Shown piece after piece: positions 1 to 15,963 of a stretch of 53,281 nt of DNA; position 1 is the stretch's first letter, and every line of letters begins with the position of its first letter. A model generated the notes under the pieces. That model did not search any database, had not been told where the DNA came from, and saw only the letters and a program-made list of their open reading frames with translations. Origin of the DNA: a virus. The position numbers were made by a program, and so were the translations under genes. The stretch is from positions 1 through 53,281 of IMG/VR virus record IMGVR_UViG_3300025133_000004. One strand, given 5' to 3'.

Positions 1-69
1 TTGATATTTCAGGTAATGCCGATATAGATGGTACACTTGAAGCAGATGCAATTACAGTTGATGGTACAG
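1..69. repeat. terminal redundancy: bases 1-69 are identical to 53212-53280
   Basis: Read directly at both ends. The match breaks only at the final window base (g at 53281 versus c at 70). Confidence 0.9.
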
Positions 70-1298
70 CTCTAAACGAATATATTGCTGATACTGTCGG
101 TGCTATGGTTGGTTCAAATACAGAATCGGGTATAACTGTAGCATATCAAGATGGTGATAATACATTAGACTTTACAGTTGGAACACTGAACCAAGACACA
201 ACTGGAACCGCTGCTATAGCAACGACAGTAACTATAACAGACAATGAAAGCACAAATGAAAACAATGCTATTATTTTTACAGCAGGTGGTGATCTTGATG
301 GTGGCAACTTAGGTTTAGAGTCTGATGGTGATTTAATTTATAATCCTTCTACTGGATTACTATCAAGTACTGGTGTTACGGCATCTGGTACAATAACTTT
401 TGGAACACTTTCTGATGGAACAATAGGAGTTACTGCTTGGGTTGATGAAGATAATATGTCTTCAGATAGTGCGACTCTTGTGCCTACACAGCAATCTGTA
501 AAAGCTTATGTAGACAGTCAAACATCTGGTTCAGGTACAATGAGTAACTTTATTCTTGAAGATGATGATGGTACTGAAGTAACTGTTTCTAACGCTAAAG
601 AAGTAAAGTTTATTGGATCAGGTATTACAACAAACTGGACTGATACAGATAACGGCACAGATGGCGATCCCTATGATTTAACATTTACAGTAGATGCAGC
701 ACAGACAGGAATTACTTCTTTACTTGCAACAGATATAAAAATTGGTGAAGATGATCAAACTAAAATAGATTTTGAAGATGCTGATAAAATTAACTTTTAT
801 GCAGGAAATGAGAAACAATTAATTTTAGAAGATGGTGCGCTTTATCCGGGTTCTGATAATATTATTGATCTTGGTAAATCTGATAATGAATTTAAAGACG
901 CTTTCTTTGATGGTACAGTTACAGCAGATGCTTTTGCAGGGCCATTAACAGGAGATGTAACAGGCAATGCGTCTGGTACAGCAGCTACAGTAACAGGAGC
1001 AGCACAATCTAATATTACTAGTTTAGGAACTTTAACAACTCTAACAGTTGATAATGTTATTATAAATGGTTCTACTATTGGACATACTGGTGATACGGAT
1101 TTAATGACAGTAGCTAGTGGAGTACTAACAGTAGCCGGAGAAGTCTCAATGACTACTCTTGATATTGGAGGTACTAATGTTACAGCAACCGCAGCAGAAC
1201 TTAATTATTCAGACGGTGTTACTTCTGCGATACAAACGCAGTTAGACACTAAAGCATCAACAGGCAAAGCTATTGCTATGGCTATGGTCTTTGGTTAA
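1..1298 (+). CDS. tail fibre protein, 3' part (gene begins at 52261 and crosses the window junction)
   Basis: The frame is open from base 3 with no start codon, and the track ORF 105..1298 begins at an internal Met. The frame of the ORF starting at 52261 continues exactly through the 69-nt overlap. LDISGNADIDGTLEADA and EFKDAFFDGTVT modules recur. Confidence 0.75.
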   Translation, partial: DISGNADIDGTLEADAITVDGTALNEYIADTVGAMVGSNTESGITVAYQDGDNTLDFTVGTLNQDTTGTAAIATTVTITDNESTNENNAIIFTAGGDLDGGNLGLESDGDLIYNPSTGLLSSTGVTASGTITFGTLSDGTIGVTAWVDEDNMSSDSATLVPTQQSVKAYVDSQTSGSGTMSNFILEDDDGTEVTVSNAKEVKFIGSGITTNWTDTDNGTDGDPYDLTFTVDAAQTGITSLLATDIKIGEDDQTKIDFEDADKINFYAGNEKQLILEDGALYPGSDNIIDLGKSDNEFKDAFFDGTVTADAFAGPLTGDVTGNASGTAATVTGAAQSNITSLGTLTTLTVDNVIINGSTIGHTGDTDLMTVASGVLTVAGEVSMTTLDIGGTNVTATAAELNYSDGVTSAIQTQLDTKASTGKAIAMAMVFG

Positions 1299-1313
1299 AA
1301 GGAGAACTTATAA

Positions 1314-1685
1314 ATGTCAGCCCCTAATGTAGTAAATGTAGCAACGATTACCGCAAAAACAGCGCAAGTAGCTGTTGGTACGTCTGCTACAGAAATCTTA
1401 TCAAATGCCGCAAGTAGCAGTAAAGTATTAAAAGTTAATATGCTTATGATTACCAATATAGATGGTAGTGCTGCTGCGGATATTACAGTTAATTTATATC
1501 CACAGGATGATATAGGTGGAACAGGAGTAGCTATTGCTTCTACAATATCTGTACCTGCTGATTCTGCTCTTATTGTACTTGATAAAGCAACTGCTATTTA
1601 TTTAGAAGAAGATAAATCATTAGGCGGCATTGCAAGCGCAGCTAGTGATTTAGTAGCCACTATTAGTTATGAAGAAATTTCGTAA
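1314..1685 (+). CDS. hypothetical protein in the tail-fibre module (123 aa)
   Basis: Track ORF with AAGGAG upstream of the ATG, tightly packed after the fibre gene. No motif recognised. Confidence 0.6.
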   Translation: MSAPNVVNVATITAKTAQVAVGTSATEILSNAASSSKVLKVNMLMITNIDGSAAADITVNLYPQDDIGGTGVAIASTISVPADSALIVLDKATAIYLEEDKSLGGIASAASDLVATISYEEIS

Positions 1686-1695
1686 GGAATAACTT

Positions 1696-2907
1696 ATGGG
1701 TTCAAGATTTAAAGGCGGTGTAGTTTCAGCCACACCTCCTACAATAAATAGTCCTACTGATGGTGAAGGCGGTTCAACATCTGGCGTTTGGTATATGACA
1801 GACGTTACTCAAGAAGAAGGAGGAAGCACTTGGCCTAAACTTGTACCACCCAGAGAGCAATGGGCTTGGGGTAGAAATCAAAATGGTCAGTTAGGTCAAG
1901 GTGATACCACTGACTATTCTTCACCTGTTCAGGTAGGCGAACTTACTAATTGGAAAGCCAGTGCCGGAGGTCAATATATTTCAGCGGCTATTAAAACTGA
2001 CGGGACGCTTTGGACTTGGGGAGCAGGTGCTAGTGGAGGTTTAGGAGATGGCACTACTGCTAATAAAAGTTCTCCTGTCCAAGTAGGCACTGATTGGGCA
2101 ACAGTTACTCAGATGCGTAATTCTACTCTTGCTATTAAAACTAACGGAACGCTTTGGGCTTGGGGGGCTAACGGACTAGGCCAATTAGGTTTAAATAACA
2201 CCACTTACTATTCTTCCCCCGTACAAGTAGGCGCTTTAACTACTTGGTTAAAAGTGTCTTGTGGGTTATATTTTGTTACAGCCATTAAAACTGACGGAAC
2301 GCTTTGGGCTTGGGGTAAAAATACTCAAGGTCAGTTAGGTCAAGGAAATACTACCCACACTTCATCTCCCGTACAAATAGGTGCGCTTACTACTTGGTCA
2401 CAGTTAGGAGATGGTACACAAAGTAGTTTTGCTATTAAAACTGACGGAACGCTTTGGGCTTGGGGTAGAAATAACTATGGACAATTAGGTGATGGAAGCA
2501 CTACTGACCGATCTTCTCCTGTTCAAATTGGTTCGCTAACTACATGGGGTCAATTAGTAAGTGCAGGACAGTATCATTGTGGAGTTGTTAAGACAGACGG
2601 GACGCTTTGGACTTGGGGCAGGAACAATTACGGCCAAGTAGGTGACGGAAGTACTACTAATAGAAGTTCTCCAGTACAAATAGGTTCTTTAACCACATGG
2701 AGCAGATTTAGAGGTGCAAAACACAGTAGTATGGGGCTTACAACAGGCGGTACTCTTTGGGCTTGGGGTTATAATAATCGTGGTCAATTAGGTCAAGGAA
2801 ATACGACTAGCTATAGTTCTCCTGTGCAAGTTGGGGCGCTTACTACTTGGAGTAAGTTGGCAGGGCAACCAGAATCAGAACACGCACTTGTTACTAAAAC
2901 AGTTTAA
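1696..2907 (+). CDS. RCC1-repeat beta-propeller protein (paralogue 1)
   Basis: About seven repeats of the type DGTLWAWGxNxxGQLGxGxTTxxSSPVQ(I/V)G. The N-terminal 45 aa are shared with the ORF at 4698. Confidence 0.8.
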   Translation: MGSRFKGGVVSATPPTINSPTDGEGGSTSGVWYMTDVTQEEGGSTWPKLVPPREQWAWGRNQNGQLGQGDTTDYSSPVQVGELTNWKASAGGQYISAAIKTDGTLWTWGAGASGGLGDGTTANKSSPVQVGTDWATVTQMRNSTLAIKTNGTLWAWGANGLGQLGLNNTTYYSSPVQVGALTTWLKVSCGLYFVTAIKTDGTLWAWGKNTQGQLGQGNTTHTSSPVQIGALTTWSQLGDGTQSSFAIKTDGTLWAWGRNNYGQLGDGSTTDRSSPVQIGSLTTWGQLVSAGQYHCGVVKTDGTLWTWGRNNYGQVGDGSTTNRSSPVQIGSLTTWSRFRGAKHSSMGLTTGGTLWAWGYNNRGQLGQGNTTSYSSPVQVGALTTWSKLAGQPESEHALVTKTV

Positions 2908-2931
2908 TTAGTTGTACTCAGAGTTAATAAT

Positions 2932-4701
2932 ATGAAAAAACAAATACATTTTATGTCAGGTGTGCCTCGCTCCGGTTCTACGGTACTGGCGGCTATACTT
3001 AACCAAAACAAACAGACTCATGTTTCTACAACGTCAGGGTTAGTATTTGCTTTAGACGGGTTAGCTAATACTTGGCACTCACAACAGCTATTAAATAATA
3101 CAGATAAAGATAAGACCAAGTTAGCTAAAACAATGAATGCTATAATTAATACGTTTTATGAAGATTATAAAAACCCTGTTATTATAGATAAAGGCAGAGG
3201 TTGGCCCATTCCTGTTATTATGCAGTCTATGAGCCAAGTATTAGGTAGACTACCTAAAATTGTAGCTACTGTTAGATCAATACCTGATTGTATGGCATCA
3301 TTTGTTAGAGTAGCTAAACCAGATAATCTTGATAAATTTATGGAATCTGGAATACTAAGTACTCATTTAAAAGCAGCATATTTAACTTTACAAACTGGTT
3401 ATGAGTTTGCACCTGAATGTTTTTGCATAGTTGAATATGAAGACCTTATAGCTAATCCAAAAGCTCAACTTAAACGCATCCATAAATTTTTGGAGTTGCC
3501 TGATTTTAATTATGACTTTACAGCGATTGATGGGACTAGCGTTCAGGAAGATGATGAAGAGCTACATCACTATGAAGGTATGCACAATATTCAGCCTGTG
3601 CTTGGAAAGCAGCACAACGAAGACCCCAAAGATGTACTAAAGCATTATTACAATTCGTTTTGTCAGCCTGAGTTTTGGCTTAAAAACCCTCGTACAACCC
3701 CTGAAATACATGACCTAGACCTTCAGTTAGCTGCTTCAAAAAGAGGCCACTTTGCAGAGGGTTGGCGGTTAAGTCAACAAATAGAAAAAAATGAGCCTAA
3801 TAATCATAGAGCTGCTTTTAATCGTGGATGGTATTTATTACGTCAAGGAGAAATTCAAAAGGGTTATCAGTTAATGGATAGAGGACGTTTAATAGGAGTA
3901 TTTGGTAATACTGTTACTTCACAATCACCTTGTTGGGACGGAAAATCAAAAGGTACAGTTTTATTATATTTAGAAGGTGGACTAGGCGATCAAATACATC
4001 AAGTACGATATGCTAAGTCTATTGCCGAAAAAGGTTGTAAAGTAATCGTATCTTGTTCTGGACAGCTTGCATCTTTATTTGTAGATGTTGAGGGCGTGAG
4101 TTCTGTTGTTCAACATGAGATGTGTCACGGGGTTTACCATGACTTTTTAGTACACGGAATGTCAGCCGTTGTTCCACTAGGATTAGAATTAAAAGACCTT
4201 TCTGGTATACCTTATATTACTAAACCTAAAAGTATTAGAGGTTTTAAAACCCGAATTGGTTTACGATGGCAAGGACAAACTGTATTTGAAAAAGAACATC
4301 AAAAGAAATTTCCTTATGATCTTTTATTTGATGCTGTAAAAGATGCAGATGCAGAGTTTATTTCTTTACAAAAAGATGAGGGTGTAGAAGATTGTCCATC
4401 GTGGGTTAAACAAGTTCCTTTAGATACTTGGGAAGATACACGACAAGCTACTGCCTCATGTGATTTGGTTATTTCATCTTGTACTTCAGTAAGCCATTTA
4501 GCAGCCGCAATGGGTGTAGAAACTTGGACAGTAATACCTGTTATGCCTTACTTCTTATATGCACAAGAAGGAGATACTTGTCCTTATTATGATTCAATGA
4601 AACTAATACGACAAAAAGAATTTGGTAATTGGGAAGATCCTTTTAATTTAATTAAAGAAAAACTTACAAAAAATAAACAAATATTACGGAGAATTGCATG
4701 A
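2932..4701 (+). CDS. sulfotransferase / TPR-like linker / GT9-like glycosyltransferase fusion protein
   Basis: N-terminus has GVPRSGST (5'-PSB loop), VRSIPDCMAS (3'-PB-like) and YEDLIANPKAQLKRIHKFLEL. C-terminus has WDGKSKGTVLLYLEGGLGDQIHQVRYAK, typical of heptosyltransferase-like GT9 domains. Confidence 0.7.
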   Translation: MKKQIHFMSGVPRSGSTVLAAILNQNKQTHVSTTSGLVFALDGLANTWHSQQLLNNTDKDKTKLAKTMNAIINTFYEDYKNPVIIDKGRGWPIPVIMQSMSQVLGRLPKIVATVRSIPDCMASFVRVAKPDNLDKFMESGILSTHLKAAYLTLQTGYEFAPECFCIVEYEDLIANPKAQLKRIHKFLELPDFNYDFTAIDGTSVQEDDEELHHYEGMHNIQPVLGKQHNEDPKDVLKHYYNSFCQPEFWLKNPRTTPEIHDLDLQLAASKRGHFAEGWRLSQQIEKNEPNNHRAAFNRGWYLLRQGEIQKGYQLMDRGRLIGVFGNTVTSQSPCWDGKSKGTVLLYLEGGLGDQIHQVRYAKSIAEKGCKVIVSCSGQLASLFVDVEGVSSVVQHEMCHGVYHDFLVHGMSAVVPLGLELKDLSGIPYITKPKSIRGFKTRIGLRWQGQTVFEKEHQKKFPYDLLFDAVKDADAEFISLQKDEGVEDCPSWVKQVPLDTWEDTRQATASCDLVISSCTSVSHLAAAMGVETWTVIPVMPYFLYAQEGDTCPYYDSMKLIRQKEFGNWEDPFNLIKEKLTKNKQILRRIA

Positions 4702-5972
4702 GCAAGGAGTGGCCGGGAGGAATTGTAAATAAAACTGCTCCTACTATTACTGCACCTACTGATGGAGAGGGAGGCAGTGCTTCTGGTGTGTGGTCATTAG
4801 ATGAAGTAATGGTTCATGAAAAAGCAGGTAATTGGCCTAAGCCGAATAAAAAAAGACAGTTATGGGGTTTTGGCCGCAATGCTAATGGACAATTAGGATT
4901 AGGTGCTACTGGTGGAGATGGTGAAACACAAGCTCATACTTCTCCTATGCAAATAGGTTCATTAACTGATTGGGCGCAAGTTGCTTTGGGTGGGGCACAT
5001 TCTATAGCAACAAAAACAGACGGTACATTATGGTCATGGGGTTATAATTCTACTGGTCAATTAGGACAAGATAACACTACTCAGCTTGTTTCCCCAAATC
5101 AAGTGGGTGCATTAACTACTTGGGGTTCTGATGTAGGACCATCAGGCGATGGTAATGCTCAAATATCTTGTGGAAATGGCACATCACATATGATTATGAA
5201 TGATGGTACATTGTGGAGTATGGGTAGAGGTAGTCAAGGTCAATTAGGTATGAATAATACTACTATTTATTCTTCACCCGTTCAGGTTGGATCATTAACT
5301 AATTGGCGAGAATTAGCTGTTGGTGGCGGTTACAAGTTTATGCACTCAATTAAAACTGATGGAACTTTATGGGCTTGGGGAAAACAAGACAATGGACAAC
5401 TGGGTGACGGCTCTACTACTGCTAGAAGTTCTCCAGTTCAAATTGGATCAGTAACAACTTGGGTAACTGTTGCTTGTGGTTATTCTCATACAATAGCAGT
5501 AAAAGAAGACGGTACTTTATGGGCAGTAGGTCACAACGATGATGGACAATTAGGAGATGGTTCTACTACTGATAGAAGTTCTTTAGTACAAATAGGTTCA
5601 CTTACTAATTGGAAATTTGTAGCGGCAGGAGATAGAAATAGTCTTGCCGTTAAAACTGATGGCACTATGTGGGCTTGGGGAAATAACGGTTACGGAGTAG
5701 TAGGTGATGGTTCTACCACTAATAGAAGTTCTCCAGTACAAATAGGTTCTTTAACAACTTGGAGAAAAGTATTCACGCGACACAGAAATTCAGGTGCGAT
5801 TAAATCAGACGGCACTTTGTGGGGTTGGGGTTATAACGATGAAGGAATATTAGGTATTGGTGCAGGTACTAATAGAAGCTCTCCAGTACAAGTAGGTACA
5901 GCAACTAACTGGCTTAGTAGTGGGCCTGGAGATTCACAAGGTATTCATTCATTATATTTGAGAGAAGGATAG
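4698..5972 (+). CDS. RCC1-repeat beta-propeller protein (paralogue 2)
   Basis: RCC1-type repeats (DGTLWAWGxxxxGQLGDGSTTxRSSPVQIG), ATGA overlap with the upstream ORF, and an N-terminal segment shared with 1696..2907. Confidence 0.8.
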   Translation: MSKEWPGGIVNKTAPTITAPTDGEGGSASGVWSLDEVMVHEKAGNWPKPNKKRQLWGFGRNANGQLGLGATGGDGETQAHTSPMQIGSLTDWAQVALGGAHSIATKTDGTLWSWGYNSTGQLGQDNTTQLVSPNQVGALTTWGSDVGPSGDGNAQISCGNGTSHMIMNDGTLWSMGRGSQGQLGMNNTTIYSSPVQVGSLTNWRELAVGGGYKFMHSIKTDGTLWAWGKQDNGQLGDGSTTARSSPVQIGSVTTWVTVACGYSHTIAVKEDGTLWAVGHNDDGQLGDGSTTDRSSLVQIGSLTNWKFVAAGDRNSLAVKTDGTMWAWGNNGYGVVGDGSTTNRSSPVQIGSLTTWRKVFTRHRNSGAIKSDGTLWGWGYNDEGILGIGAGTNRSSPVQVGTATNWLSSGPGDSQGIHSLYLREG

Positions 5973-5983
5973 AGGAAAATATT

Positions 5984-6379
5984 ATGTCATTATTTGTAAA
6001 AGTAGTAAATGAAGAAGTAAGAGAAGTTTGGGATACACAACCTCCCGCAGGTGAGGCTAATTGGTATGCAGCTATTGAAGTGCGTCCTGAAATTACTGAT
6101 GGCAAGCAAATTTATACTGGACATACGTTTGATCTTACTACTGATCCGGTACAGATTGTTTACGGTGTAAATAATTTAACTGTAGATCAGCGTAAATCAA
6201 ATCTTATTAGTAAGGCTAAAGGTGCATATCAGGAAGTCGCTAATGATCAAACGCGCCTTGAAACTGAGGATGGTTCTGGTGATGCCGCATTAGTAAGTGA
6301 TGCTAAAGATGCTAAAGATCAAAACATTACCGCTATTAATGCTTGTACTACTCACGACCAATTAGATAATTTAGGATAA
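5984..6379 (+). CDS. hypothetical protein (131 aa)
   Basis: Track ORF, co-directional and closely spaced. No motif recognised. Confidence 0.55.
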   Translation: MSLFVKVVNEEVREVWDTQPPAGEANWYAAIEVRPEITDGKQIYTGHTFDLTTDPVQIVYGVNNLTVDQRKSNLISKAKGAYQEVANDQTRLETEDGSGDAALVSDAKDAKDQNITAINACTTHDQLDNLG

Positions 6380-6423
6380 TAAAATGCCTGCTAAAAAAGT
6401 AAATAAGGTTAAATGGTAGTGAG

Positions 6424-6675
6424 GTGGACATTATGACCGAAACAGAACTAGAAAGGATTATACATCAAGCAGCGCATGAGGGAGCAAAAGAAGCATTGAA
6501 AGAGATAGGTCTTTCAGATGAAGAAGCTTATGACGATGTAAAAGAACTAAGAGGATTACTAGATTCTTGGAGAGCTACTAAAGTTACAGTGGGGCAAACA
6601 GTAGCTAGGATAGTAACAACTGCATTATTAACTGCTTTAGCTGTAGGCATTTATATGGGTTGGGGAAGTGACTGA
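6424..6675 (+). CDS. small membrane protein with a C-terminal TM helix (lysis-cassette candidate)
   Basis: Track ORF with hydrophobic VARIVTTALLTALAVGIYMGWG at the C-terminus. The ATG at 6433, preceded by GAGGTG, is a likelier start than the GTG at 6424. Confidence 0.6.
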   Translation: MDIMTETELERIIHQAAHEGAKEALKEIGLSDEEAYDDVKELRGLLDSWRATKVTVGQTVARIVTTALLTALAVGIYMGWGSD

Positions 6676-6820
6676 GTTTTTTATAAGATTTGGAATTGCT
6701 TTTTGTATCGTTGTAATAATAATTTGTTTAAAAATTTTAATACAAGGGAATATAGAATTAACTAGGATAGTTTATTATCACTATAAAGATAAATTTAAAA
6801 GATGGTGGAGAAATTTATGA
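6668..6820 (+). CDS. unlisted small ORF, 50 aa, one TM helix
   Basis: Hand translation gives (V/M)TEFFIRFGIAFCIVVIIICLKILIQGN...RWWRNL. The GTG start overlaps the upstream stop and the stop overlaps the next ATG. It falls below the track length cutoff. Confidence 0.4.
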   Translation: MTEFFIRFGIAFCIVVIIICLKILIQGNIELTRIVYYHYKDKFKRWWRNL

Positions 6821-6960
6821 TAGAGTTTTTAGACAAGTTAAAAGATTTAGTAATAAGAACTAAAGAAAAACTAAGCGAACCTGTAAGCGCACCTAGACGT
6901 AAGGTTATTCTTGTAGGTGTAGGTATCTTAATTGTAATTGGTATTGCACTGGTTATCTAA
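6817..6960 (+). CDS. unlisted small ORF, 47 aa, C-terminal TM helix
   Basis: Hand translation gives MIEFLDKLKDLVIRTKEKLSEPVSAPRRKVILVGVGILIVIGIALVI. ATGA overlap upstream and TAATG overlap with the holin gene downstream. Confidence 0.5.
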   Translation: MIEFLDKLKDLVIRTKEKLSEPVSAPRRKVILVGVGILIVIGIALVI

Positions 6961-7367
6961 TGTTAGGACTTATTGATAGGCTTATCGGCCCTGTATCAAC
7001 AATACTTGATAAGGTAGTAAGCGATAAAGACCTAAAAGAAAAGTTAGCTCACGACATTGCGACAATGGCAGAACGTCACGGCCACGATGTTATTAAAGCA
7101 CAGATAGAAGTTAATAAAGAAGAAGCTAAACATAGAAGTTTGTTTGTTAGTGGTTGGAGGCCGGCAGTCGGTTGGACTTGTACACTGGCGCTTTTGTCAA
7201 ACTTTATCTTAATCCCTATGACTAATTTTATATTAGTTTTAGCAGATTCAGATATTGCAATACCTTTAATTGATGTTTCTACTATGATGCCTGTTCTTAT
7301 GGGTATGCTCGGTTTAGGTACAATGAGAACGGTAGAGAAAATAAATAAAGTTGAGAGAAATACATAG
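6960..7367 (+). CDS. holin, 3-TM GTA-type (DUF3154-like)
   Basis: SLFVSGWRPAVGWTCTLALLSNFILIPM plus two further hydrophobic segments. The pattern matches my memory of the Holin of 3TMs family. Confidence 0.6.
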   Translation: MLGLIDRLIGPVSTILDKVVSDKDLKEKLAHDIATMAERHGHDVIKAQIEVNKEEAKHRSLFVSGWRPAVGWTCTLALLSNFILIPMTNFILVLADSDIAIPLIDVSTMMPVLMGMLGLGTMRTVEKINKVERNT

Positions 7368-7375
7368 GAATTATT

Positions 7376-10300
7376 ATGGCCGGAAAAAGAGCAAGAGCGC
7401 AAAAGAAAAGAGCAGACTACCGTAAAGGTGGTAGAGTTCATGCTGAACAGGGTTGGAACCCAAATGATATTACAAGGATGGTTGGAGGAATGTATGATAA
7501 AGCTAAAAATAAAGCAAGTTTAGCTTTAGGGCAAGAAAGAAATATGTACTCTGGGCCTCCTGTAGACAGGGGTGCGCCTGTTTATGACAGAGGTGCTCCT
7601 AAAGAATATAGTCCGTGGGATGATATTAATTCTGGTGGTGGTGTAAACACAACAAGTACCGATCCTACTGCTGATGCTAATAGAACTACTGGTTCAGTTT
7701 ATAATGCAGCAGGAGCAGATTTAAACAGAGTTGCTATGTTTGATAACACTGTAAAACCAATTGGCGTTCAAGAAACTTTTAATCCTGATGCTGTTGAAGC
7801 CGAAAATACTACTACAACTACAACACCTGCTTATACTCAGGCAGACATAGACCAAGCAGTTGCCGATCTTAATTCAGGAAAAATAACTGCTGCACAATTA
7901 GCGGCACAGTATGGCGTTTCAGAAGACTATGTAAATCAAAATTTAAAAGCTATAAATACTCAAGCTGCTGCTGCTGAGACGGCAACTACTGACACTACAA
8001 CTACTGATACTACGACTACTGGTACTGCTATAGACCCCGATGATGGTTTTATAAGTTTCCCCCGTGATGATTTTACTGCTACTACAACAACTGCCGCTGA
8101 CGTAGCTGATATTCCAGTTGACGGGTCTTATACAGAATTTGAAACTGAACAAGTTGTAGAAGCTATTAATAGTGGAGCAATGACAGTAAAAGAAGTTGCT
8201 GATACTTTTGGAGCAACAGAAGCACAAGTACAGGCAGAATTAGATCGTCAAAATCAAAAGGCAGCAGGTGAAGAAGTAACTGGTACAGACCCCTTTTCGG
8301 AAGGAGTAAAGGATGCTACTAAAGAACTTGTAGGTAAACAAGAAGCTGCTAAATCACAAGAAGCTATAAAAGAAACAATAAAAGATACAGGGTTTAAAAA
8401 TAAACCTGTTAATTTTGATACAGAAAGTTTAAAGTCTCAAATTTTAGCATTAGATGAACAACTTAAAGCAAGAGGATTAACACCGGACACTCCTGAGTAT
8501 ATAGCGGCACAAGAACAAGCAAGAGCAGAGTTTGTAAAACTTGCTCAAGGAACTGGGCAGGTTAATTTTTCTATAGAAGAGTTTGCAGCAGCAACAGGAT
8601 TAACAGTAGCTCAAGCACAGAATCAATATTATAATTATAATCACGAAGGCAAAGTTCCTCTTGGTTTATCTTATAAAAATAATGTTACTAAAGCACAAGA
8701 AGAAACTTATGTACCGGGAAGTTATTTAAGAAATTATAAACCTGTAGATAAACAAAAATTAATACAGCAACAAACAGCCGAAGGTATTAGTAGAGAAGGA
8801 ACTACTACTTCTGAAGAAGCTATACAACAATTAAATACTTTTTCTGGTATTGATTATAGTGGTATGGATAAAGCTGTTGCTAAAGACATAGAAGAAACTA
8901 TTGGTACTTTAAAAGAAGCAGTAAATGATGGAACAGTATCGCCCGAAGATTACGAAGCTGAGTTAGCCCGTTCGTTGGGAGATATAATTCCGGCTTTTAA
9001 AGGTGCCCCAGTAGAAGCAGTAATGGAAGAAATTAGAGCTTTAACTGATCCTGCTGTAGCTGCTCAAGTAGCAGAACAAGAGGCAGCATCTAGAAGGGCA
9101 AAAGGGGTTGATTATATTATAGACCCTAAAAGTTTTATATCTAAAGTAACAGGAGAAACAGCAGTATTATCTGAGTCTCCTGAAGCTGAGTTTGCAACGA
9201 GATCAGCAATTACGGGTAAACCCGCTACGCCTAGAGAAGCTGCACAGATAGATCAAATAGGTTATGAAGCAAGACAAAGAGCTAAAGTAACTGGAGAAGC
9301 TGCTAAAGGAGCTGCTGCAAATGCTGTGGTTGCTATTGGTAATATACCTGCTGAGTTAGCAGAACAAACAATAGAAGATGCTGCATCTGTAAGTGAAAGA
9401 ATAGATACTGAAGATATAGATGTTCAAGCAGCCGTAGCTGCACTACCGCCAGAACTTTTAGTTTCGGCTCAAATGGAAAATTTATTAGGTGGTATGGAGT
9501 CTGGAAATATTCCAACTTGGGCAAAACCCGCTGTATCGGCAGTAGAACAAGGTTTAGCCGCTAGAGGTTTGGGTGTTTCTACAGTAGGTAGAGATGCTTT
9601 GTTTAATGCTATTATACAAACTGCTTTACCTATGGCACAAAGCAACGCACAAGCTTTACAAACTAGAGCAACAAATAATTTAAATAGAGAGCAACAGGCT
9701 AACTTAGAAGAAGCACGTTTAAATGCAACTAGACGATTAAGTAATTTATCTAATCAACAAACAGCTTCTTCACAAACAGCTCAGTTTGCACAAAATATAA
9801 ATGTTCTTGAAACTCAACAAAGACAACAAACGGCTTTAACTAGCGCACAGCTTATACAACAAACAGAATTACAAAATTTACAAAATCGTCAAAGAACAGC
9901 AGAATTAGAATCTCAAAACCGACAACAAATTAATTCTCAAGAATTAGGCAATGCTCAACAAATAGAATTAGCTGAGTTAGAAATAAAGAACCAAACTGAG
10001 CAGCAAAACATGACTGCTGATAATCAAATGCGTCTTGCAAATATGCAGGTAGCTGCTGATTTTCTGTCTAAAAATGCAGGGTTCAAACAACAAATGGAGC
10101 TTGCTAATCTTTCTAATGAACAGCAAATGGAACTGGCTAATTTAAGCGCACAAAATCAAGCCAATGCAGAATCATTAACAAATGAACAGCAAGCTTTAAT
10201 GGCAGATTTAAATGCTACAATGCAAAGTAATCTGGCTCAAGGCAGAATAGCTGCTGAAATGAATGTTGCTCAATTAAATGTTGATCAACAAAGAGCAGTA

Positions 10301-11182
10301 ACTAATGCTACAAAACAAGCCAATATAGATTTAACTAAATTTTCTACAGCACAACAAGTTGAACTAGCTAATAGTCAGTTTATGCAAAACACTACATTAA
10401 CTAATATGAATGCTAGACAACAAGCAGCAATGCAAAGAGCTACGTCTATGGCATCTTTAGATTTGAGTGCAGCCGATTCAAGAACTAAATTATCAATAGA
10501 AAATGCTAGAAACTTTTTACAATTAGATGTAACAAATTTAAATAATGAACAGCAAGCTTCTGTATTAGATGCTCAGATGGAGCAACAAAGATTATTATCT
10601 GATCAAGCAGCAGAAAATGTAGCAAGACAATTTGGAGCTACGTCCACTAATCAAGTTAATATGTTTCTTAAATCTCAAAAAGATACTATGGAACAATTTA
10701 ACGCAACACAAAGCAATGCAATGGAACAGTTTAATGCTTCTGAAAAAAACAGAATAGCAGCTATAGAAGCTAATAATTCATTAGACGCTTCAAAATTTAA
10801 TGCTCAAGTAGAATTACAAGTAGAACAATTTAATGAAAACATTACTAACCAAAGAGATATTTGGAACGCTTCTAATGCACAAGCAATAGAACAGGCTAAT
10901 ACTAACTGGCGTAGACAGGCTAATACTGCTGATACTGCTGCTATTAATGCTGCTAATGCACAAAATGTACAAAATGCTTATGGTGTCACAACACAGGAAT
11001 TAGATTTTGTTTGGAACTCTTTAAGAGATGAAGCTACTTTTTTAAGAAAAGAATCTTTAGATACAGCTAATCAAAAAACAAATTTATATATTACAGCTAT
11101 GAATAATGAAGCTAATACAGCTATAAATAGTACGGGTGTTGCAGACGGTGTTAAAAATTTAATTAACGAAATGTTTAATTAG
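7376..11182 (+). CDS. large virion-associated protein, 1268 aa, Thr-rich N-terminal part and Q/N-rich coiled-coil C-terminal part
   Basis: Track ORF in the structural arm. Tandem ELANLSNEQQM-type repeats and two or three repeats of an NSG..T..(Q/E)(L/V)A..(Y/F)G..E module. Confidence 0.7.
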   Translation: MAGKRARAQKKRADYRKGGRVHAEQGWNPNDITRMVGGMYDKAKNKASLALGQERNMYSGPPVDRGAPVYDRGAPKEYSPWDDINSGGGVNTTSTDPTADANRTTGSVYNAAGADLNRVAMFDNTVKPIGVQETFNPDAVEAENTTTTTTPAYTQADIDQAVADLNSGKITAAQLAAQYGVSEDYVNQNLKAINTQAAAAETATTDTTTTDTTTTGTAIDPDDGFISFPRDDFTATTTTAADVADIPVDGSYTEFETEQVVEAINSGAMTVKEVADTFGATEAQVQAELDRQNQKAAGEEVTGTDPFSEGVKDATKELVGKQEAAKSQEAIKETIKDTGFKNKPVNFDTESLKSQILALDEQLKARGLTPDTPEYIAAQEQARAEFVKLAQGTGQVNFSIEEFAAATGLTVAQAQNQYYNYNHEGKVPLGLSYKNNVTKAQEETYVPGSYLRNYKPVDKQKLIQQQTAEGISREGTTTSEEAIQQLNTFSGIDYSGMDKAVAKDIEETIGTLKEAVNDGTVSPEDYEAELARSLGDIIPAFKGAPVEAVMEEIRALTDPAVAAQVAEQEAASRRAKGVDYIIDPKSFISKVTGETAVLSESPEAEFATRSAITGKPATPREAAQIDQIGYEARQRAKVTGEAAKGAAANAVVAIGNIPAELAEQTIEDAASVSERIDTEDIDVQAAVAALPPELLVSAQMENLLGGMESGNIPTWAKPAVSAVEQGLAARGLGVSTVGRDALFNAIIQTALPMAQSNAQALQTRATNNLNREQQANLEEARLNATRRLSNLSNQQTASSQTAQFAQNINVLETQQRQQTALTSAQLIQQTELQNLQNRQRTAELESQNRQQINSQELGNAQQIELAELEIKNQTEQQNMTADNQMRLANMQVAADFLSKNAGFKQQMELANLSNEQQMELANLSAQNQANAESLTNEQQALMADLNATMQSNLAQGRIAAEMNVAQLNVDQQRAVTNATKQANIDLTKFSTAQQVELANSQFMQNTTLTNMNARQQAAMQRATSMASLDLSAADSRTKLSIENARNFLQLDVTNLNNEQQASVLDAQMEQQRLLSDQAAENVARQFGATSTNQVNMFLKSQKDTMEQFNATQSNAMEQFNASEKNRIAAIEANNSLDASKFNAQVELQVEQFNENITNQRDIWNASNAQAIEQANTNWRRQANTADTAAINAANAQNVQNAYGVTTQELDFVWNSLRDEATFLRKESLDTANQKTNLYITAMNNEANTAINSTGVADGVKNLINEMFN

Positions 11183-11191
11183 GAGATTAAA

Positions 11192-12541
11192 ATGGGTTTC
11201 TTTAAAAAAGTATTTGGCGGTGTTGCTAAAACCTTTAGAAAAATAGGTAGGGGCATAAAGAAAGTTGTTGGTAAAATAGGCCAATTTATGAATAAAATAG
11301 GTATTGTCGGTCAAATAGCTATGGCTTTTATACTACCCGGAATAGGGAATATGTTAATGAATGGGATAGGTGGAATAGCTTCTAGTATGGTAACTAATAC
11401 TTTAGGGGGTATTGGTGGGGCTATAGTTAAAGGAGCAGGTCATGTAGTTAGTGCCGCTCATAAGTTTGTAACAGTTGGAAAAAATGCTTTTAATACTGTA
11501 ACTCAAGGAGTTACAAAGTTTGTAGGAGAGTTTACTAAAACTGCTTTAAATAAAATTCCGGGCGTTAATATTCAAAGTGCTTCTAAAAATTTCTTTGGTA
11601 CTGGTGGAGCTTGGGACACTGTTCAAAAAGATATAACTAAGAATTATAAAAATATTATGAACCCATTTAAATCTACTGTAAACATAAAAGAAGGAATGGA
11701 TATAAAAGATGTAGTAAACAGCACTGGAGTTTCTAAACAAAGAATTCAAGACATGAATATTGGTGTTGATTTAAATAATTTAAAAGTCGGAGAAAGTTTA
11801 AATTTTGATGCAGGAAGTATAGGCAAGCCTATGACGGGTGATCAAATTAAAGAACTTACTGGTGTAGATTTTGGTGGAACCACCCCTAAACCAGATTATC
11901 TTTCTGCTCAAGATGTTAGAAATATGACAGGTGTAGATTTTGGTGGAGGAACCGTATCACCTAGCGTTGCTCGCGCTCAAGCCGGAGCAGAGGCGTTTGG
12001 AATAACAGACCCCTTAACAATGGATCAATCAGGAGTTTTTGGCCCTCCTCCTGCTCCTCTTACTCCTACTGCTCCATATACGCAAGCCGAAATAGATAGT
12101 ATGAACTTAGGTTTTGATACTCGTAAGTATCAGACAAGTATACTATCTGCTCCTAATAATAATGTACCGCTTTCTTCTATTGTCCCTGATCCTGATCCCG
12201 GTGTAATGCAGCGTATGTGGACAGGAGCGAAAGGAGAGCTTGAAAATAGATATAGTTTAGATAAACCATTTACATCTGCATATCAAGCTGCTCAAGATAT
12301 AGCAACAGCACAAGCAGTAATTGAACCAGAAGTAGATTACGATACTTGGGGTTCTTATAGCGCTCCTATGTATCTTGCTTCAGGGGCACAAGATTATGAT
12401 GTTACAGTTCAATCTCCTCCAAGAAATTTCCAAGCTTATTCAAGTATGGGGCAGTATGGTTCAACCGCAAGAATATATGATACTATTTTAATGAATCCTG
12501 TATCTACTTGGTCAAGAGATTTATCGTCTAGATTTGCTTAA
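11192..12541 (+). CDS. virion-associated protein with a glycine-zipper N-terminus and a LysM-like segment
   Basis: N-terminus has IGGIASSMVTNTLGGIGGAIVKGAG. TVNIKEGMDIKDVVNSTGVSKQRIQDMNIGVDLNNLKVGESLNF fits the LysM pattern. (L/M)TGVDFGG is duplicated. Confidence 0.6.
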   Translation: MGFFKKVFGGVAKTFRKIGRGIKKVVGKIGQFMNKIGIVGQIAMAFILPGIGNMLMNGIGGIASSMVTNTLGGIGGAIVKGAGHVVSAAHKFVTVGKNAFNTVTQGVTKFVGEFTKTALNKIPGVNIQSASKNFFGTGGAWDTVQKDITKNYKNIMNPFKSTVNIKEGMDIKDVVNSTGVSKQRIQDMNIGVDLNNLKVGESLNFDAGSIGKPMTGDQIKELTGVDFGGTTPKPDYLSAQDVRNMTGVDFGGGTVSPSVARAQAGAEAFGITDPLTMDQSGVFGPPPAPLTPTAPYTQAEIDSMNLGFDTRKYQTSILSAPNNNVPLSSIVPDPDPGVMQRMWTGAKGELENRYSLDKPFTSAYQAAQDIATAQAVIEPEVDYDTWGSYSAPMYLASGAQDYDVTVQSPPRNFQAYSSMGQYGSTARIYDTILMNPVSTWSRDLSSRFA

Positions 12542-12552
12542 AGGTAATAATT

Positions 12553-13137
12553 ATGTTAAAAGAAATAACTCCTGATTATGTAAATACTGCTTCTAAAATG
12601 AAGCGTTCAATTCCGGGTGAAGCATTAGCAAATGATCCTGCTAATCCTTATCCATTTGAATCTTCTCCAGAGTTTACAGTACAGCGTGAAGCTTTAGAAT
12701 ATTTATTTTTAACTATAACGGATGAAGAAAAATATCCTGATATTCTTGTAGCTATAGATAATGGTGTGCCAATAATGGAATTAACACAAGTAATATTATT
12801 TAAAGGTTTTACAGAAGGTAAATGGAATCCTGATTTATTAATGTTACTAGCTGAACCATTAGCTTATATGTTAATAGCTTTAGCAGAAAGACAAGGAATT
12901 GATTATATTATTAATAGAGATGATGTTAAAGAAGATACTATAGCAGAAAGTAAATTAAATAGTACAGGATTAGAAAACCGATTAAAAGACAAACAAAATA
13001 AAATTAAAAAAAATAGTCCTATTCCTCCTGAAATTAAAACACTTGTTGAGGAAGCACCCATTATAGAACAAAGTTTATTAGACAAACCAGAAGGCATAGA
13101 ACCTATGGATAACAGTCTTTTAGCGCAGGGGGTATAG
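12553..13137 (+). CDS. hypothetical virion-module protein (194 aa)
   Basis: Track ORF, co-directional and tightly packed. Confidence 0.6.
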   Translation: MLKEITPDYVNTASKMKRSIPGEALANDPANPYPFESSPEFTVQREALEYLFLTITDEEKYPDILVAIDNGVPIMELTQVILFKGFTEGKWNPDLLMLLAEPLAYMLIALAERQGIDYIINRDDVKEDTIAESKLNSTGLENRLKDKQNKIKKNSPIPPEIKTLVEEAPIIEQSLLDKPEGIEPMDNSLLAQGV

Positions 13138-13138
13138 T

Positions 13139-15373
13139 ATGTACAAAGAAGTAGAAGATTTAGGTTCCTCTCTTTTAGCTAGAGGAAGAGAAACTAGAAA
13201 AAGAACTGAAAAAAGATATAAAAAAGATGTCAGAAATCAAGCTGCCCTTCAAGTAGTTGGTAAAGGTGTACAACTATTTAATCAAGCAATAAAAGATCGT
13301 ACTAATACTTTTATTAATGAACAAGAAGATTTAGTAGGTGAAAGATTAAGATATGAAGCTACTTTAAAAGATAGAGATGCAATTATAACTAACTATGAAA
13401 CATCTACTGCACACGCAGGAGGAAGAAAAGGTTACTGGGCAGAAGAATTTGCAGGAGAAATATTAAGTAATTTAAAATTAAATTTTGATGAATCTCAGTG
13501 GGATGAAGATTCTATGAATTTGTATGCCCAAGCTGAAGGTTTAAAAGCGGCTGAAGAATATTTACCTAAGTTTGAAGAAGCTTATCAAGCTTCTTTACAA
13601 ATGCCAGATTTAGGAGACTATGATGCGTGGGTAAGAACAAAAGATGGTAGAGCAAGTAATGCAGGTGGTTGGCTTTTTAACAGAGCCGAAAGAGCTATAA
13701 CCGGAAAAACTCAAGCAGATGTTGATAATGAACTTATAGATGCAGTTATTAATAGTCGGTATGGTGACGCTGCTACAAAAGTTAGCGCTTTTAAAAATGC
13801 TTTAGAGCAAGGATATGGTCTACGGGCTGCAAAAAAATTCGGTGACTTAACGCCTGAGAATTTAAACATACGTCCCGCAGGATTAAAGATTACATCAGTT
13901 GAAAGAAAGGAAAGAGAAGTTCCGTATTTTGATGTAACTCTTAAAGTGCCCTTTAATGTTATTAAAGGAACAATGAACGGAAGACCTATTATATTTGAAG
14001 AAGCTCCATATGATATTGATCCTAATACTGGAGAATATATACGAGATGAAGAAGGTAAGAAAACAATAGAACCACAGCATTTAAGAAATTGGAATATAAT
14101 GAGCCGAACAGCACAAGGACAAGACACCCTTACAGAAAGCGATAATGTTACTAGTGTAGAAGATAGGGTTGTAGTAGCACGACCAGAGGGCGCACCTAGA
14201 GTAGGTAAGGGGGAAATGTGGGGACAAGCGGGAACGTGGCAAACATATAAGGTAATAGGAGAGAGAGGAGAGTTAGTAGAAAGGTTTGAAGAATTCACAC
14301 CTCATACTCCAGACGAAGAACTTTCTTTAGATCAAAAAATATCTACTTTATCTGAAGCTTCAATAACTCAAATGCAAGGAGCTATTACAGAAGCTTCTAC
14401 TATGTTTACAGCAGGATCAAGTGGTTTTTTTGGTAAAGTGCCTTCTGTATTAGAAGGAAATGTTATGGGTTTTTATTTGGCAGGAGATGATGTAACTGCT
14501 GATGTAATGGATGAACTAAAAAGGAATGAACAATTAGGTACAAGAGCTACGGCTGAATATCAACGATTAGCTGTTAAAGCTAAAGAACTAACTGTAACAA
14601 CTGGATTAGGAACAGAAGAAACTACAAAACTAATTGCCGATGCTTATATTTTTAGTATTCTTACTGGCATGGAAAATTCTGAGTATAAAGCTTTTTCTGA
14701 AAATGAAAATTTTTTAGGATTTCAAAATTTTGAAAATACAATATTATTGGCGGCTGATGCAGAAAGAGAAGACGTTTCTGTTGAATCTGTTTCAATACCA
14801 CCAAAAGAATATAGTTCTATTCTTGCAGGAGTTATAGAAGAAATATCTTATGATAAAGATGATGATATGAGAACTACATTACAAAAACAAAGAGCAAGAG
14901 ATTTAATAGGTAATTCTCAACGGTTTATGTCGCAAGAAGTAACTTTAATAGATACAGAATCAGGTGAGCCACTAACTAAATTAATAAATGAACTTGCTAC
15001 TACAAATCATACAGTAGTAGATAACAAAATATCTATGGGAAACCTTGTAGAGCATTGGAACATATCGGCTACACCACCGCCACCACCGCCACCACCACCT
15101 GTTAATACGGGTTTGCCCAACGATAATCCTTATTATGATCCAACTTCGGACGTTTTTGGAGAACCGGAACCTCTCAGCTATACCTTTAGAGGGGTTATGC
15201 CTTGGATTAATAAACAGCTTGGGATAATTAGTGGCTCACGGGAATCAGTACTTAAACAACAAGAGCTTACGCGTTTGGTCAGGCAAATTATGGAAACCGA
15301 GGACGTTTCTTATGAGGATGCAATGTTCTTGGCTGCGAAGCAATTAGGAGGCGGTGAAGACGAGGAAAAGTAA
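13139..15373 (+). CDS. hypothetical internal-virion-type protein, 744 aa, with a Pro9 tract
   Basis: Track ORF. The run ccaccgccaccaccgccaccaccacct near 15070-15100 encodes PPPPPPPPP. Confidence 0.65.
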   Translation: MYKEVEDLGSSLLARGRETRKRTEKRYKKDVRNQAALQVVGKGVQLFNQAIKDRTNTFINEQEDLVGERLRYEATLKDRDAIITNYETSTAHAGGRKGYWAEEFAGEILSNLKLNFDESQWDEDSMNLYAQAEGLKAAEEYLPKFEEAYQASLQMPDLGDYDAWVRTKDGRASNAGGWLFNRAERAITGKTQADVDNELIDAVINSRYGDAATKVSAFKNALEQGYGLRAAKKFGDLTPENLNIRPAGLKITSVERKEREVPYFDVTLKVPFNVIKGTMNGRPIIFEEAPYDIDPNTGEYIRDEEGKKTIEPQHLRNWNIMSRTAQGQDTLTESDNVTSVEDRVVVARPEGAPRVGKGEMWGQAGTWQTYKVIGERGELVERFEEFTPHTPDEELSLDQKISTLSEASITQMQGAITEASTMFTAGSSGFFGKVPSVLEGNVMGFYLAGDDVTADVMDELKRNEQLGTRATAEYQRLAVKAKELTVTTGLGTEETTKLIADAYIFSILTGMENSEYKAFSENENFLGFQNFENTILLAADAEREDVSVESVSIPPKEYSSILAGVIEEISYDKDDDMRTTLQKQRARDLIGNSQRFMSQEVTLIDTESGEPLTKLINELATTNHTVVDNKISMGNLVEHWNISATPPPPPPPPPVNTGLPNDNPYYDPTSDVFGEPEPLSYTFRGVMPWINKQLGIISGSRESVLKQQELTRLVRQIMETEDVSYEDAMFLAAKQLGGGEDEEK

Positions 15374-15441: not shown

Positions 15442-15963
15442 ATGTCACTTAGCGGATTAGACATTACTCTAGCAGAAGAAGATAAATTTGAAAACGATAC
15501 TTTAATTACTGTAGCTATAAAAAGTAAAGAAGGTTTTCTTAGGACTCCTGAATGGGATAATGCACAATGGACATGGGGATATGGAACAGAAGCACCTCTT
15601 CCAAAAGACCGAAATGCAGAAGTTCCTACAGATTTAACCATAACTAGAGAACAAGCTCAAGAAGAACTTCTTGGTTATTTAGATAGAGAAATAATAAATA
15701 AATTAAATACTTATTCAGAAAGAAATAATTATAATTGGAATGATACTCAAAAAGAAGGTCTTACAAGTTTCTTATATAATTTAGGTTTTGGCGCACTAAA
15801 TCAACTTACTGCTAATGGTACACGTACTGATGAAGAAATAGCAGAAAAGATGCTAGAATATAATAAAGAAAGAAATCCAGAAACAGGAGAACTTGAAGTA
15901 AGCAGAGGCTTAACAAAAAGAAGAATAGACGAAAGTGATTATTTTAGAAGAGGCATGAATTAG
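15442..15963 (+). CDS. GH24 (T4/lambda-type) lysozyme
   Basis: KEGFLRTPEWDNAQWTWGYGTE (catalytic Glu context) and GLTKRRIDESDYF (RRxxExxLF-like). AGGAAG lies upstream of the ATG. Confidence 0.75.
   Translation: MSLSGLDITLAEEDKFENDTLITVAIKSKEGFLRTPEWDNAQWTWGYGTEAPLPKDRNAEVPTDLTITREQAQEELLGYLDREIINKLNTYSERNNYNWNDTQKEGLTSFLYNLGFGALNQLTANGTRTDEEIAEKMLEYNKERNPETGELEVSRGLTKRRIDESDYFRRGMN

Follow-up and report, generated by a model that had tools for sequence, protein, structure and literature searches.

The genome of an uncultured marine virus (IMG/VR record IMGVR_UViG_3300025133_000004, positions 1–53,281; this whole stretch of 53,281 nucleotides (nt) is hereafter the window) carries a compact gene cassette directly downstream of its tail fibre gene. 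The cassette comprises, all on the plus strand, genes for a 123-amino-acid protein (p123; 1314–1685), a 403-amino-acid RCC1 propeller (RCC1-A; 1696–2907), a 589-amino-acid fusion enzyme (2932–4701), a second RCC1 propeller of 424 amino acids (RCC1-B; 4698–5972) and a 131-amino-acid protein (p131; 5984–6379). The first four of these open reading frames (ORFs) had been proposed in an original prediction made from the letters alone, and we recovered them at the same coordinates, together with the ATGA at 4698–4701 through which the start of RCC1-B overlaps the stop of the fusion. The intergenic gaps in the cassette are 10–24 nt, and a promoter and terminator scan of positions 1–8000 returned sites no commoner than in shuffled sequences, which together fit a single late transcript.

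Both ORFs that flank the fusion proved to be RCC1 proteins, as had been predicted, with seven repeats each and scores far above the gathering threshold of PF00415 (21.7 bits). RCC1-A matches this family with E = 5e-70 (232 bits) and RCC1-B with E = 9.5e-58 (193 bits); against PF25390 (WD40_RLD; cut-off 150 bits) they score 245 and 230 bits, respectively. The two proteins are 52% identical and have in common an N-terminal stretch of about 50 residues (GG-x-V...P-T-I...PTDGEGGS-x-SGVW...G-x-WPK), which we term the class I anchor motif; in RCC1-A it occupies residues 1–54 and the seven-bladed propeller residues 55–403, and RCC1-B has the same organization. The blade motif G-x-L-G-x-[GN]-x-T-T-x-x-S-S-P-V-Q-[VI]-G is present in all seven blades of RCC1-A. 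The RCC1 paralogues of related phages fall into four N-terminal classes: class I, a shorter SG-x-W-x-L...G-x-WP, LG-x-[IV]KPGFN and MNQVNAA-x-AAGTW. Because differing classes occur among the paralogues inside one cassette (compared with window positions 1696–1857 and 4698–4859), each copy may dock at a different site or onto another copy.

The fusion enzyme between the propellers joins a sulfotransferase domain, a short helical linker that resembles tetratricopeptide repeats (TPRs) and a glycosyltransferase (GT) domain. Its AlphaFold2 (AF2) model, built from a diverse alignment of 81 sequences (mean predicted local distance difference test score (pLDDT), 92; predicted template modelling score, 0.82), contains a P-loop sulfotransferase (residues 1 to about 245), four helices (261–321) and two Rossmann-like halves (about 340–560). 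We assign residues 1–244 (2932–3663) to the sulfotransferase from Pfam and fold searches. The suggested Sulfotransfer_3 family, PF13469, aligns to residues 7–190 with 56.1 bits (cut-off 27), and PF00685 scores 35.4 bits (cut-off 22). The motifs by which this domain had been recognized also hold across the family: G10xPRSGST17, R115, D119 and S123 are invariant in an alignment of 37 fused homologues (39–83% identity), and the 5′-phosphosulfate-binding (5′-PSB) and 3′-phosphate-binding (3′-PB) motifs are intact.

In Foldseek searches of the PDB, the best matches to the sulfotransferase domain are tyrosylprotein sulfotransferases (TPSTs; E = 5e-7 to 5e-6), with the CurM/OLS sulfotransferases and heparan sulfate 3-O-sulfotransferase (3-OST) ranking next; a PDB sequence search with the whole fusion returned weak TPST matches only. 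TPST1/2 and RaxST share with the domain the GxPRSG(S/T)T 5′-PSB loop and the R...S 3′-PB motif. In a HMMER alignment to TPST1, which has about 19% identity and an uncertain register, the Glu-Glu pair of TPST1 lies opposite Thr33-Thr34 of the fusion, and Thr34-Ser-Gly-Leu is invariant. We rejected a TPST assignment because the catalytic Glu (Glu99 in TPST2) lies opposite an invariant Thr, and the enzyme is therefore not a canonical TPST.

The linker (residues 261–321; 3712–3894) consists of two TPR-like hairpins on the evidence of the AF2 model (helices 261–270, 274–287, 292–304 and 308–321) and a family profile. A TPR-like linker had been proposed from the sequence; the Pfam match is sub-threshold (E = 0.03), but with the family profile, consensus TPR structures are retrieved at E = 2.7e-16, and a profile of the TPR and GT parts together retrieves TPR designs from the PDB.

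The C-terminal part (residues from about 335 to 589; 3934–4701) is a GT-B domain by Foldseek and by its homologues. Here the predicted GT9 identity stands at the level of fold and superfamily and falls at the level of the Pfam family: PF01075, run on the whole fusion and on two C-terminal fragments, reached only E = 0.16 and 11.7 bits (cut-off 22) over 24 residues. A GT-only profile matched no PDB sequence even at E = 10. Foldseek returned TibC (4RAP, E = 1.2e-5), the GT9 structure 3TOV (3.2e-5), WaaC (2H1H and 2GT1) and WaaF (1PSW), the GT9 structure matches all having probability 1.0 and E values of 1e-5 to 4e-4, as well as the TPR plus GT-B enzymes SPINDLY and OGT at low template modelling (TM) scores of 0.17–0.25. 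In BFVD, the domain matches phage models named ‘Glycosyl transferase, family 9’ (E = 2.4e-14, TM score 0.73) and also ‘Aah/TibC’. An exhaustive search with the TPR and GT parts found 26,674 related representative clusters, including multi-module homologues of the C-terminal part with E values of 1e-84 to 1e-148. Among the homologues, P0121, P0123, P0124 and P0143 pass PF01075 (58–118 bits), P0351 has a precomputed PF01075 match, and 9 of 24 single-module family members have sub-threshold matches (best E = 0.0022). Given the fold matches and the homologues that pass PF01075, we place the GT domain in the GT9 superfamily, not in the GT9 family of Pfam. A GT41 assignment was rejected, as PF13844 gave no match at E values up to 10.

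Some homologues are giant TPR and GT proteins with three to six tandem modules; P0121, P0123, P0124 and P0126 (2232–3140 amino acids) each have five or six tandem TPR plus GT9-like modules and dozens of TPR repeats. A Pfam scan of four giant homologues showed, among the families listed, no RCC1 family fused to these modules.

Invariant residues of the GT domain include E348-G-G-x-G-D353 and S516-C-T-S-x-x-H522. From motif position and the WaaC literature, rather than from a computed superposition, D353 would correspond to the catalytic Asp of heptosyltransferases; the invariant Cys517 presumably stands, by the same motif comparison, at the position of WaaC Asp261, the second catalytic or sugar-binding Asp. 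The fusion has neither a signal peptide nor a membrane segment, its N terminus being the first strand and P-loop of the fold, and the enzyme should therefore act in the cytoplasm. Both catalytic domains are probably active.

Relatives of the TPR–GT part occur at at least 565 IMG/VR loci, and the closest 80 of these give the order of the cassette: p123, one or two RCC1 genes, the fusion, zero to two RCC1 genes and p131, followed in many cases by genes for a DUF6127 protein and a holin. At 77 of these 80 loci the fusion directly adjoins an RCC1 gene, and on long contigs the genes that flank the fusion and have no recorded Pfam match are RCC1 propellers, 47–57% identical to those of the window. 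The fusion alone has more than 1,000 metagenomic homologues; the best 120 are all 581–600 amino acids long and 70–100% identical to the window protein. With RCC1-A as the query, the search yielded 383 loci, and 62 of the 75 new best loci carry the TPR–GT, the sulfotransferase or both. In 40 complete cassettes, the distances between landmark genes leave room for an estimated one to five propeller-gene equivalents (mode, three to four). The cassette is also found behind a different head module (Phage_capsid_4 with a SU10-type adaptor and portal), and thus moves between phage lineages. The combination of genes had been called unusual; it is in fact common in uncultured aquatic phages, and the window itself holds a minimal version, with two propellers and no adenosine 5′-phosphosulfate (APS) kinase.

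APS kinase genes (PF01583, 145–149 amino acids) follow the p131 homologue in L005 (12455–12904), in L008 (6054–6491) and at 34 of the 45 IMG/VR loci with enough downstream sequence (for example, 11348–11761 in L025; L numbers denote individual loci). Their presence beside the cassette argues that the sulfotransferase is active and that 3′-phosphoadenosine 5′-phosphosulfate (PAPS) matters. Usually annotated as a sulfur auxiliary metabolic gene, the APS kinase looks here like a supply of PAPS for the sulfotransferase. As a textbook sulfur-assimilation enzyme close by in the relatives, it could also point to the fusion itself being a sulfur or carbohydrate auxiliary metabolic gene, which would make a sulfated small molecule or a store of activated sulfate and would hitch-hike in a cassette that is mobile between lineages with different head modules. 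We consider this highly improbable: a free-standing metabolic gene would not be expected to be fused to TPR and GT-B domains, the linkage to RCC1 is strict in both search directions, and the adjacency recurs in cellular genomes (below) that lack the APS kinase.

The propellers are likely to be tail proteins, on account of their position, their shared N terminus and three comparisons with other phages. Their genes share an operon with the fibre gene, which precedes them, and with the genes for internal virion proteins, which come after. At locus L014, a 423-amino-acid gene (2044–3315) has the class I N-terminal motif and an ATGA overlap with the fusion, and the body of its product is 370 residues of non-RCC1 sequence, rich in Ser, Thr, Tyr and Asn and without a Pfam match; this is apparently a head swap on the same N-terminal anchor, and receptor-binding proteins are usually built in this way, with a constant anchor and heads that can be exchanged. 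At loci L172–L174, a fibre-like gene and a p123 homologue are followed by three paralogues of about 860 amino acids built from a different repeat, and neither RCC1 nor the enzyme is present in this slot. In L172 (7375–14375; a Tara contig of a SU10-adaptor-type podovirus), the repeat is FDSNSNK-x-V-x-x-Y-x-D-x-GN, an 87-amino-acid gene separates paralogues, and the fibre-like protein encoded before the p123 homologue ends in GKAIAAAIVFG, in agreement with the window fibre (GKAIA-x-A-x-VFG). These repeat proteins are taken to be another type of propeller, forming an alternative array in the same slot. Finally, gp12 of the cultured Pseudomonas phage PollyC, a protein in the T7-fibre slot, ends in RCC1 blades, and PHROGs 20500 and 11922, both ‘tail protein’, present the same likeness. 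In PollyC, the blades are the fibre’s own C terminus, are less regular and have no accompanying GT or sulfotransferase, whereas the propellers of the cassette are separate genes with a short anchor, in one to five copies.

RCC1 domains elsewhere are GTPase regulators or scaffolds, and the propellers might accordingly not be virion parts at all: they could be intracellular or released effectors, or lectin-like factors, with which the enzyme acts on a host target. On the strength of the name alone, PHROGs assigns the RCC1 families of phages to ‘DNA, RNA and nucleotide metabolism’, and no PHROG tail family matches the propellers strongly (best E = 9.7e-11, over a partial stretch). Such a role is improbable for genes that are embedded in a late structural operon between the fibre and the internal proteins, that pair a shared N-terminal anchor with a swapped C-terminal domain in the manner of modular tail proteins, that have counterparts in the PollyC fibre slot and that occur in one to five copies, as is typical of receptor-binding gene arrays.

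The same partners are found in cultured phages. The cyanomyoviruses BUCT-ZZ01 and S-SRM01 both carry RCC1 and TPR–GT genes after their fibre genes. In BUCT-ZZ01, the order is tail fibre, a 166-amino-acid protein with a weak tail-assembly-chaperone match, a 700-amino-acid double RCC1 propeller and a 571-amino-acid TPR–GT; in S-SRM01, one RCC1 gene directly precedes the TPR–GT and a second directly precedes a stand-alone sulfotransferase. The BUCT-ZZ01 propeller and TPR–GT have accessions UTS52180.1 and UTS52179.1, and the S-SRM01 proteins are QPX48302, QPX48303, QPX48309 and QPX48310. The marine virus AG-345-E08 has the same trio.

The pairing extends to bacteria. Among 80 loci in cellular genome records, 42 have RCC1 coding sequence no more than 1.7 kb from the GT: 39 of the 65 with a GT of 31% identity or higher, and 3 of the 15 with a lower identity. 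The adjacency occurs in records of Bdellovibrionota, Planctomycetota, Bacteroidota and Chlamydiae, the last three being metagenome-assembled genomes (MAGs), and in a Planctomycetota MAG the RCC1 stop overlaps the GT start. On the one complete Bdellovibrio chromosome covered, that of Bdellovibrio bacteriovorus Bd16 (L110; CP168971.1, 2812309–2827301), a TPR–GT9-like gene lies beside an RCC1 gene: a 336-amino-acid GT (6995–8005 of the locus, at about 2,819,303–2,820,313 of the chromosome) is followed by a methyltransferase-like (S-adenosylmethionine) gene (8007–8573) and a gene for a 1091-amino-acid protein (8625–11900) with three RCC1 propellers (PF25390, E = 1.9e-279). This protein starts with a twin-arginine (Tat) signal, SRRAFLLNSATAATAAAGA, and would thus be exported after folding in the cytoplasm. 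A second RCC1 region lies at 12097–14988 of the same locus. Separately, the podovirus MW202512.1 (L251, 6305–9738) has a distant TPR–GT homologue directly after its major capsid gene; an FkbM methyltransferase and a GalT-like gene accompany it, and RCC1 is absent. This cluster possibly serves capsid glycosylation.

The family affinities of the enzyme bear on a different substrate. The enzyme could remodel a glycan of the host envelope (lipopolysaccharide (LPS) core, capsule or glycolipid) from its cytoplasmic face, with the propellers as independent receptor-binding proteins; possible purposes include blocking superinfection, keeping progeny from sticking to debris, and creating or masking a receptor. 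GT9 is classically the family of LPS heptosyltransferases, and WaaC and WaaF are among the fold matches, as are carbohydrate and lipid sulfotransferases (heparan sulfate 3-OST and CurM/OLS). The single match of the fusion in NCBIfam is a weak one to the nodulation protein NoeE, the cassette borders lysis genes, and in cyanophages S-SKS1 and S-SCSM1 the sulfotransferase occurs alone, with no RCC1 match there. We nevertheless regard a host-glycan target as rather unlikely, for it leaves unexplained the TPR–GT beside RCC1 in unrelated phages and several bacterial phyla, the lack of the enzyme at loci whose slot is filled by a repeat protein of another type, and both the TPR module and the translational coupling to RCC1-B.

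We propose instead, with confidence that is about evenly balanced, that the propellers are exchangeable distal tail heads on a shared anchor and that the cytoplasmic enzyme glycosylates and sulfates them; the propellers as acceptor carry the same even weight when taken by themselves. What the analysis shows is which domains are present, that their cofactor motifs are intact, that the cassette is conserved and that RCC1 and TPR–GT genes are adjacent in phages and bacteria alike; where the propellers sit in the virion, what the acceptor and the donor sugar are and which reaction comes first are inferred. The N-terminal anchor of about 50 residues would dock each propeller to the part of the tail formed by the fibre and p123, where the propellers would act in receptor binding or adhesion. 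The 589-amino-acid enzyme, presumably soluble, bifunctional and made late in infection, would recognize folded propellers through its short TPR, much as the TPR domain of FlmG from Caulobacter crescentus binds its substrate proteins, the flagellins (PMC7591256). The GT9-like GT-B domain would then move a sugar from a host nucleotide-sugar onto the propellers, as TibC does onto the adhesin encoded by the neighbouring gene. A candidate site is the exposed blade loop N/S-T-T-x-x-S-S-P that is repeated in every blade; the RCC1-A loop x-[GN]-x-T-T-x-x-S-S-P-V-Q offers Ser/Thr, Asn-x-Thr and sometimes Tyr sites sevenfold, over its seven blades. The PAPS-dependent sulfotransferase domain would subsequently sulfate the added glycan or a protein side chain, with PAPS provided by the phage APS kinase in most relatives and by the host in the case of the window phage.

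Several considerations favour modification of the propellers. The nearest structural relatives of the enzyme (TibC, SPINDLY/OGT and the TPSTs) are protein-modifying enzymes, an analogy that we count on this side, and the joining of both catalytic domains in one polypeptide suggests that they act in succession on a single acceptor. That most relatives bring an APS kinase of their own argues for a reaction limited by PAPS in their hosts. Tripp et al. 2008 reportedly found that SAR11 bacteria lack the genes for assimilatory sulfate reduction, which could fit such a limitation, although the window itself is without the kinase. The original prediction had suggested receptor-binding or fibre-decorating propellers accompanied by a modifying enzyme; our results are consistent with this, and the conserved cassette, the APS kinase of the relatives and the cross-phylum RCC1/TPR–GT adjacency make it a stronger candidate.

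Other points weigh against modification of the propellers. That two genes are neighbours does not establish what the substrate is. The classical target of GT9 enzymes is the LPS core, and glycolipids are frequent acceptors of bacterial sulfotransferases. The invariant Thr at the TPST catalytic Glu gives no specific support to tyrosine sulfation; Cys at the presumed position of the second GT9 Asp means that the donor and the chemistry may differ; and the TPR, with two hairpins only in the model, appears far shorter than in OGT, SPY or FlmG. Many bacterial RCC1 repeats contain the S-S-P-V-Q-V blade motif, which is thus no mark of an acceptor. An APS kinase is absent from the window in a search with the proteins of two relatives, and no sugar-nucleotide or sulfur genes are present among the other ORFs of the window. 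The Bdellovibrionales loci are orthologous, so that independent lineages are far fewer than loci, and many top-scoring ‘genome’ matches are probably phage contigs binned into MAGs; the lineage count is therefore modest, comprising several phage groups, Bdellovibrionota, Planctomycetota, Bacteroidota and Chlamydiae.

More tentatively, and at less than even confidence, these loci may reflect a post-translational system common to phages and bacteria, in which a TPR–GT9-like enzyme modifies RCC1 adhesins in the cytoplasm; in phages, with a fused or linked sulfotransferase and the support of a phage APS kinase, it would give sulfo-glycosylated particles on some of the most abundant uncultured aquatic podoviruses.

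Encoding an adhesin alongside a dedicated cytoplasmic GT is a known logic, seen in TibC/TibA, Aah/AIDA-I, HMW1C/HMW1 and FlmG with flagellins. TibC and Aah (PDB 4RAP and 4RB4) are cytoplasmic GT-B enzymes of GT9 type whose genes lie beside those of the repeat-rich beta adhesins TibA and AIDA-I, which they O-glycosylate before export. TibC is among the best fold matches of the fusion; however, there is no detectable sequence similarity to the fusion GT, the fusion has TPR and sulfotransferase domains in addition, and its partner is an RCC1 propeller rather than a beta-helix. FlmG, OGT, SPINDLY and HMW1C likewise combine an N-terminal TPR or all-alpha domain with a GT-B domain that acts on folded cytoplasmic proteins. 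Relative to FlmG and GT41 enzymes, the fusion has a TPR of two hairpins, a GT9-like catalytic domain and an added sulfotransferase.

Among viruses, mycobacteriophage-encoded glycosyltransferases reportedly glycosylate virions (Freeman et al. 2023 are said to have described this), and chloroviruses glycosylate their capsids. As in the cassette, these viral GTs are encoded in or beside the structural module and act on virion proteins, but the enzyme family, the host group and the target differ (proposed tail propellers here, as opposed to capsid or tail tube). We know of no description of sulfation of a phage particle. Our literature searches found nothing on phage RCC1 with sulfotransferase or heptosyltransferase, on APS kinase with sulfotransferase or on tyrosine sulfation in phages, and a genomics paper on HMO-2011-type phages mentions none of the genes of the cassette; the system had been thought uncharacterised, and the literature agrees. 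What is new is the RCC1 propeller as partner, the TPR–GT9-like subfamily with an invariant Cys in the GT9 signature, the fusion or linkage of the TPR–GT to a sulfotransferase together with a phage APS kinase, and the location in the tail module of abundant aquatic phages.

If the proposal is correct, protein glycosylation of the bacterial type would gain a new substrate class in RCC1 propellers, and the sulfate would be the first on a phage virion, a modification that could tune adsorption or mask the propellers. The APS kinase of many aquatic phages would then serve particle maturation, not sulfur auxiliary metabolism. Since the cassette moves between lineages and varies in propeller number, and is common (more than 1,000 protein clusters in addition to the IMG/VR loci), it is likely to matter for the host range of abundant phages in marine and fresh waters. 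The corresponding gene pair of Bdellovibrio suggests the same chemistry on surfaces or secreted proteins of bacterial predators. Two cultured cyanophages carry the partners, and the host of one is Synechococcus elongatus PCC 7942, which is open to genetic manipulation.

The fibre gene itself spans the ends of the window, which is circular, with a 69-nt terminal direct repeat (positions 1–69 are the same as 53213–53281). Its 5′ part (52261–53281, plus strand), an ORF read across the junction, lies downstream of homologues of tail tubular proteins A and B, and its 3′ part (1–1298, plus strand, with coding resuming at position 70) encodes the C terminus ...GKAIAMAMVFG. The 397-amino-acid tail fibre predicted earlier (105–1298) was rightly recognized as fibre, but it represents just the portion downstream of an internal ATG, in the 3′ part of a gene that runs across the window ends. 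The whole fibre (52261–53281 plus 70–1298) would be about 749 amino acids if the overlap is simple, and residues 4–58 are 46% identical to the N terminus of gp66 of Pelagibacter phage HTVC115P. The circular junction falls within an internal fibre duplication of about 130 amino acids (LDISGNADIDGTLEADA-x-TVDGTALNEYIADTVGAMVGSNTE... is present twice), so the length of 749 amino acids is uncertain, as one repeat unit may have been collapsed in assembly.

Between the fibre and RCC1-A, p123 is recognized as a small jelly-roll protein by its AF2 model (pLDDT 88, nine beta strands, a confident jelly-roll). It has 3,061 metagenomic homologues and precedes the first RCC1 gene, or the fusion itself, at every locus where it was detected; copies 41–50% identical occupy the equivalent position in L004–L010, and others occur in most IMG/VR loci. 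A fold search gave weak, generic jelly-roll matches from which no function could be assigned, and a role as an adaptor is a guess. On the downstream side, the conserved p131 is the last gene of the cassette at most loci and at some lies between the fusion and the downstream RCC1 gene. Copies 47–65% identical follow the last RCC1 gene in L004–L010, and others occur in IMG/VR loci; p131 has no match in Pfam, PHROG or NCBIfam. Next, also on the plus strand, are the DUF6127 gene (6424–6675; PF19622, E = 2.7e-21) and that of a holin with three transmembrane segments (6960–7367; PF11351, E = 3.8e-16). This pair (6424–7367) accompanies the cassette in several relatives, in identical order in L004 and L012, and in the window it is followed by the gene for a 1268-amino-acid protein.

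We classify the source genome, from its sequence, as an uncultured HMO-2011-type podovirus, on the grounds of capsid identities, module layout and the lack of near-identical DNA among isolates. Its capsid protein is 60% identical to that of HTVC115P and 44% identical to that of Puniceispirillum phage HMO-2011; the relationship to HTVC115P, the closest isolate, is that of the 60% capsid protein identity alone, and positions 1–12000 of the window had no near-identity DNA match in 50,697 phage records. Terminase, portal, capsid and tail tubular proteins A and B are encoded at 42.5–52.3 kb, the internal virion proteins at 7.4–24.6 kb and the replication module (ribonucleotide reductase, PolA, primase-helicase and endonuclease I) on the minus strand; the other ORFs checked for sugar-nucleotide or sulfur genes are these replication genes, a lysozyme and a DUF932 protein. 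HTVC115P has in common with the window the fibre N terminus, the tubular proteins and the internal proteins, and compared with it is without p123, the propellers, the enzyme and p131; the cassette thus occupies a variable region between the fibre and the ejection proteins. The GC content of 0.436 at positions 2001–3000, over RCC1-A, compared with about 0.36 genome-wide, is tentatively attributed to the Gly/Thr-rich repeat composition, not to recent transfer.

Two long ORFs presumably encode ejection or internal virion proteins. One, of 1268 amino acids (7376–11182), has a long Gln/Asn-rich, repetitive C-terminal half and is 35% identical to HTVC115P gp47; the other, of 2463 amino acids (15963–23354), has no Pfam match. 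The lysozyme gene (15442–15963) lies between internal-protein genes, far from the holin gene.

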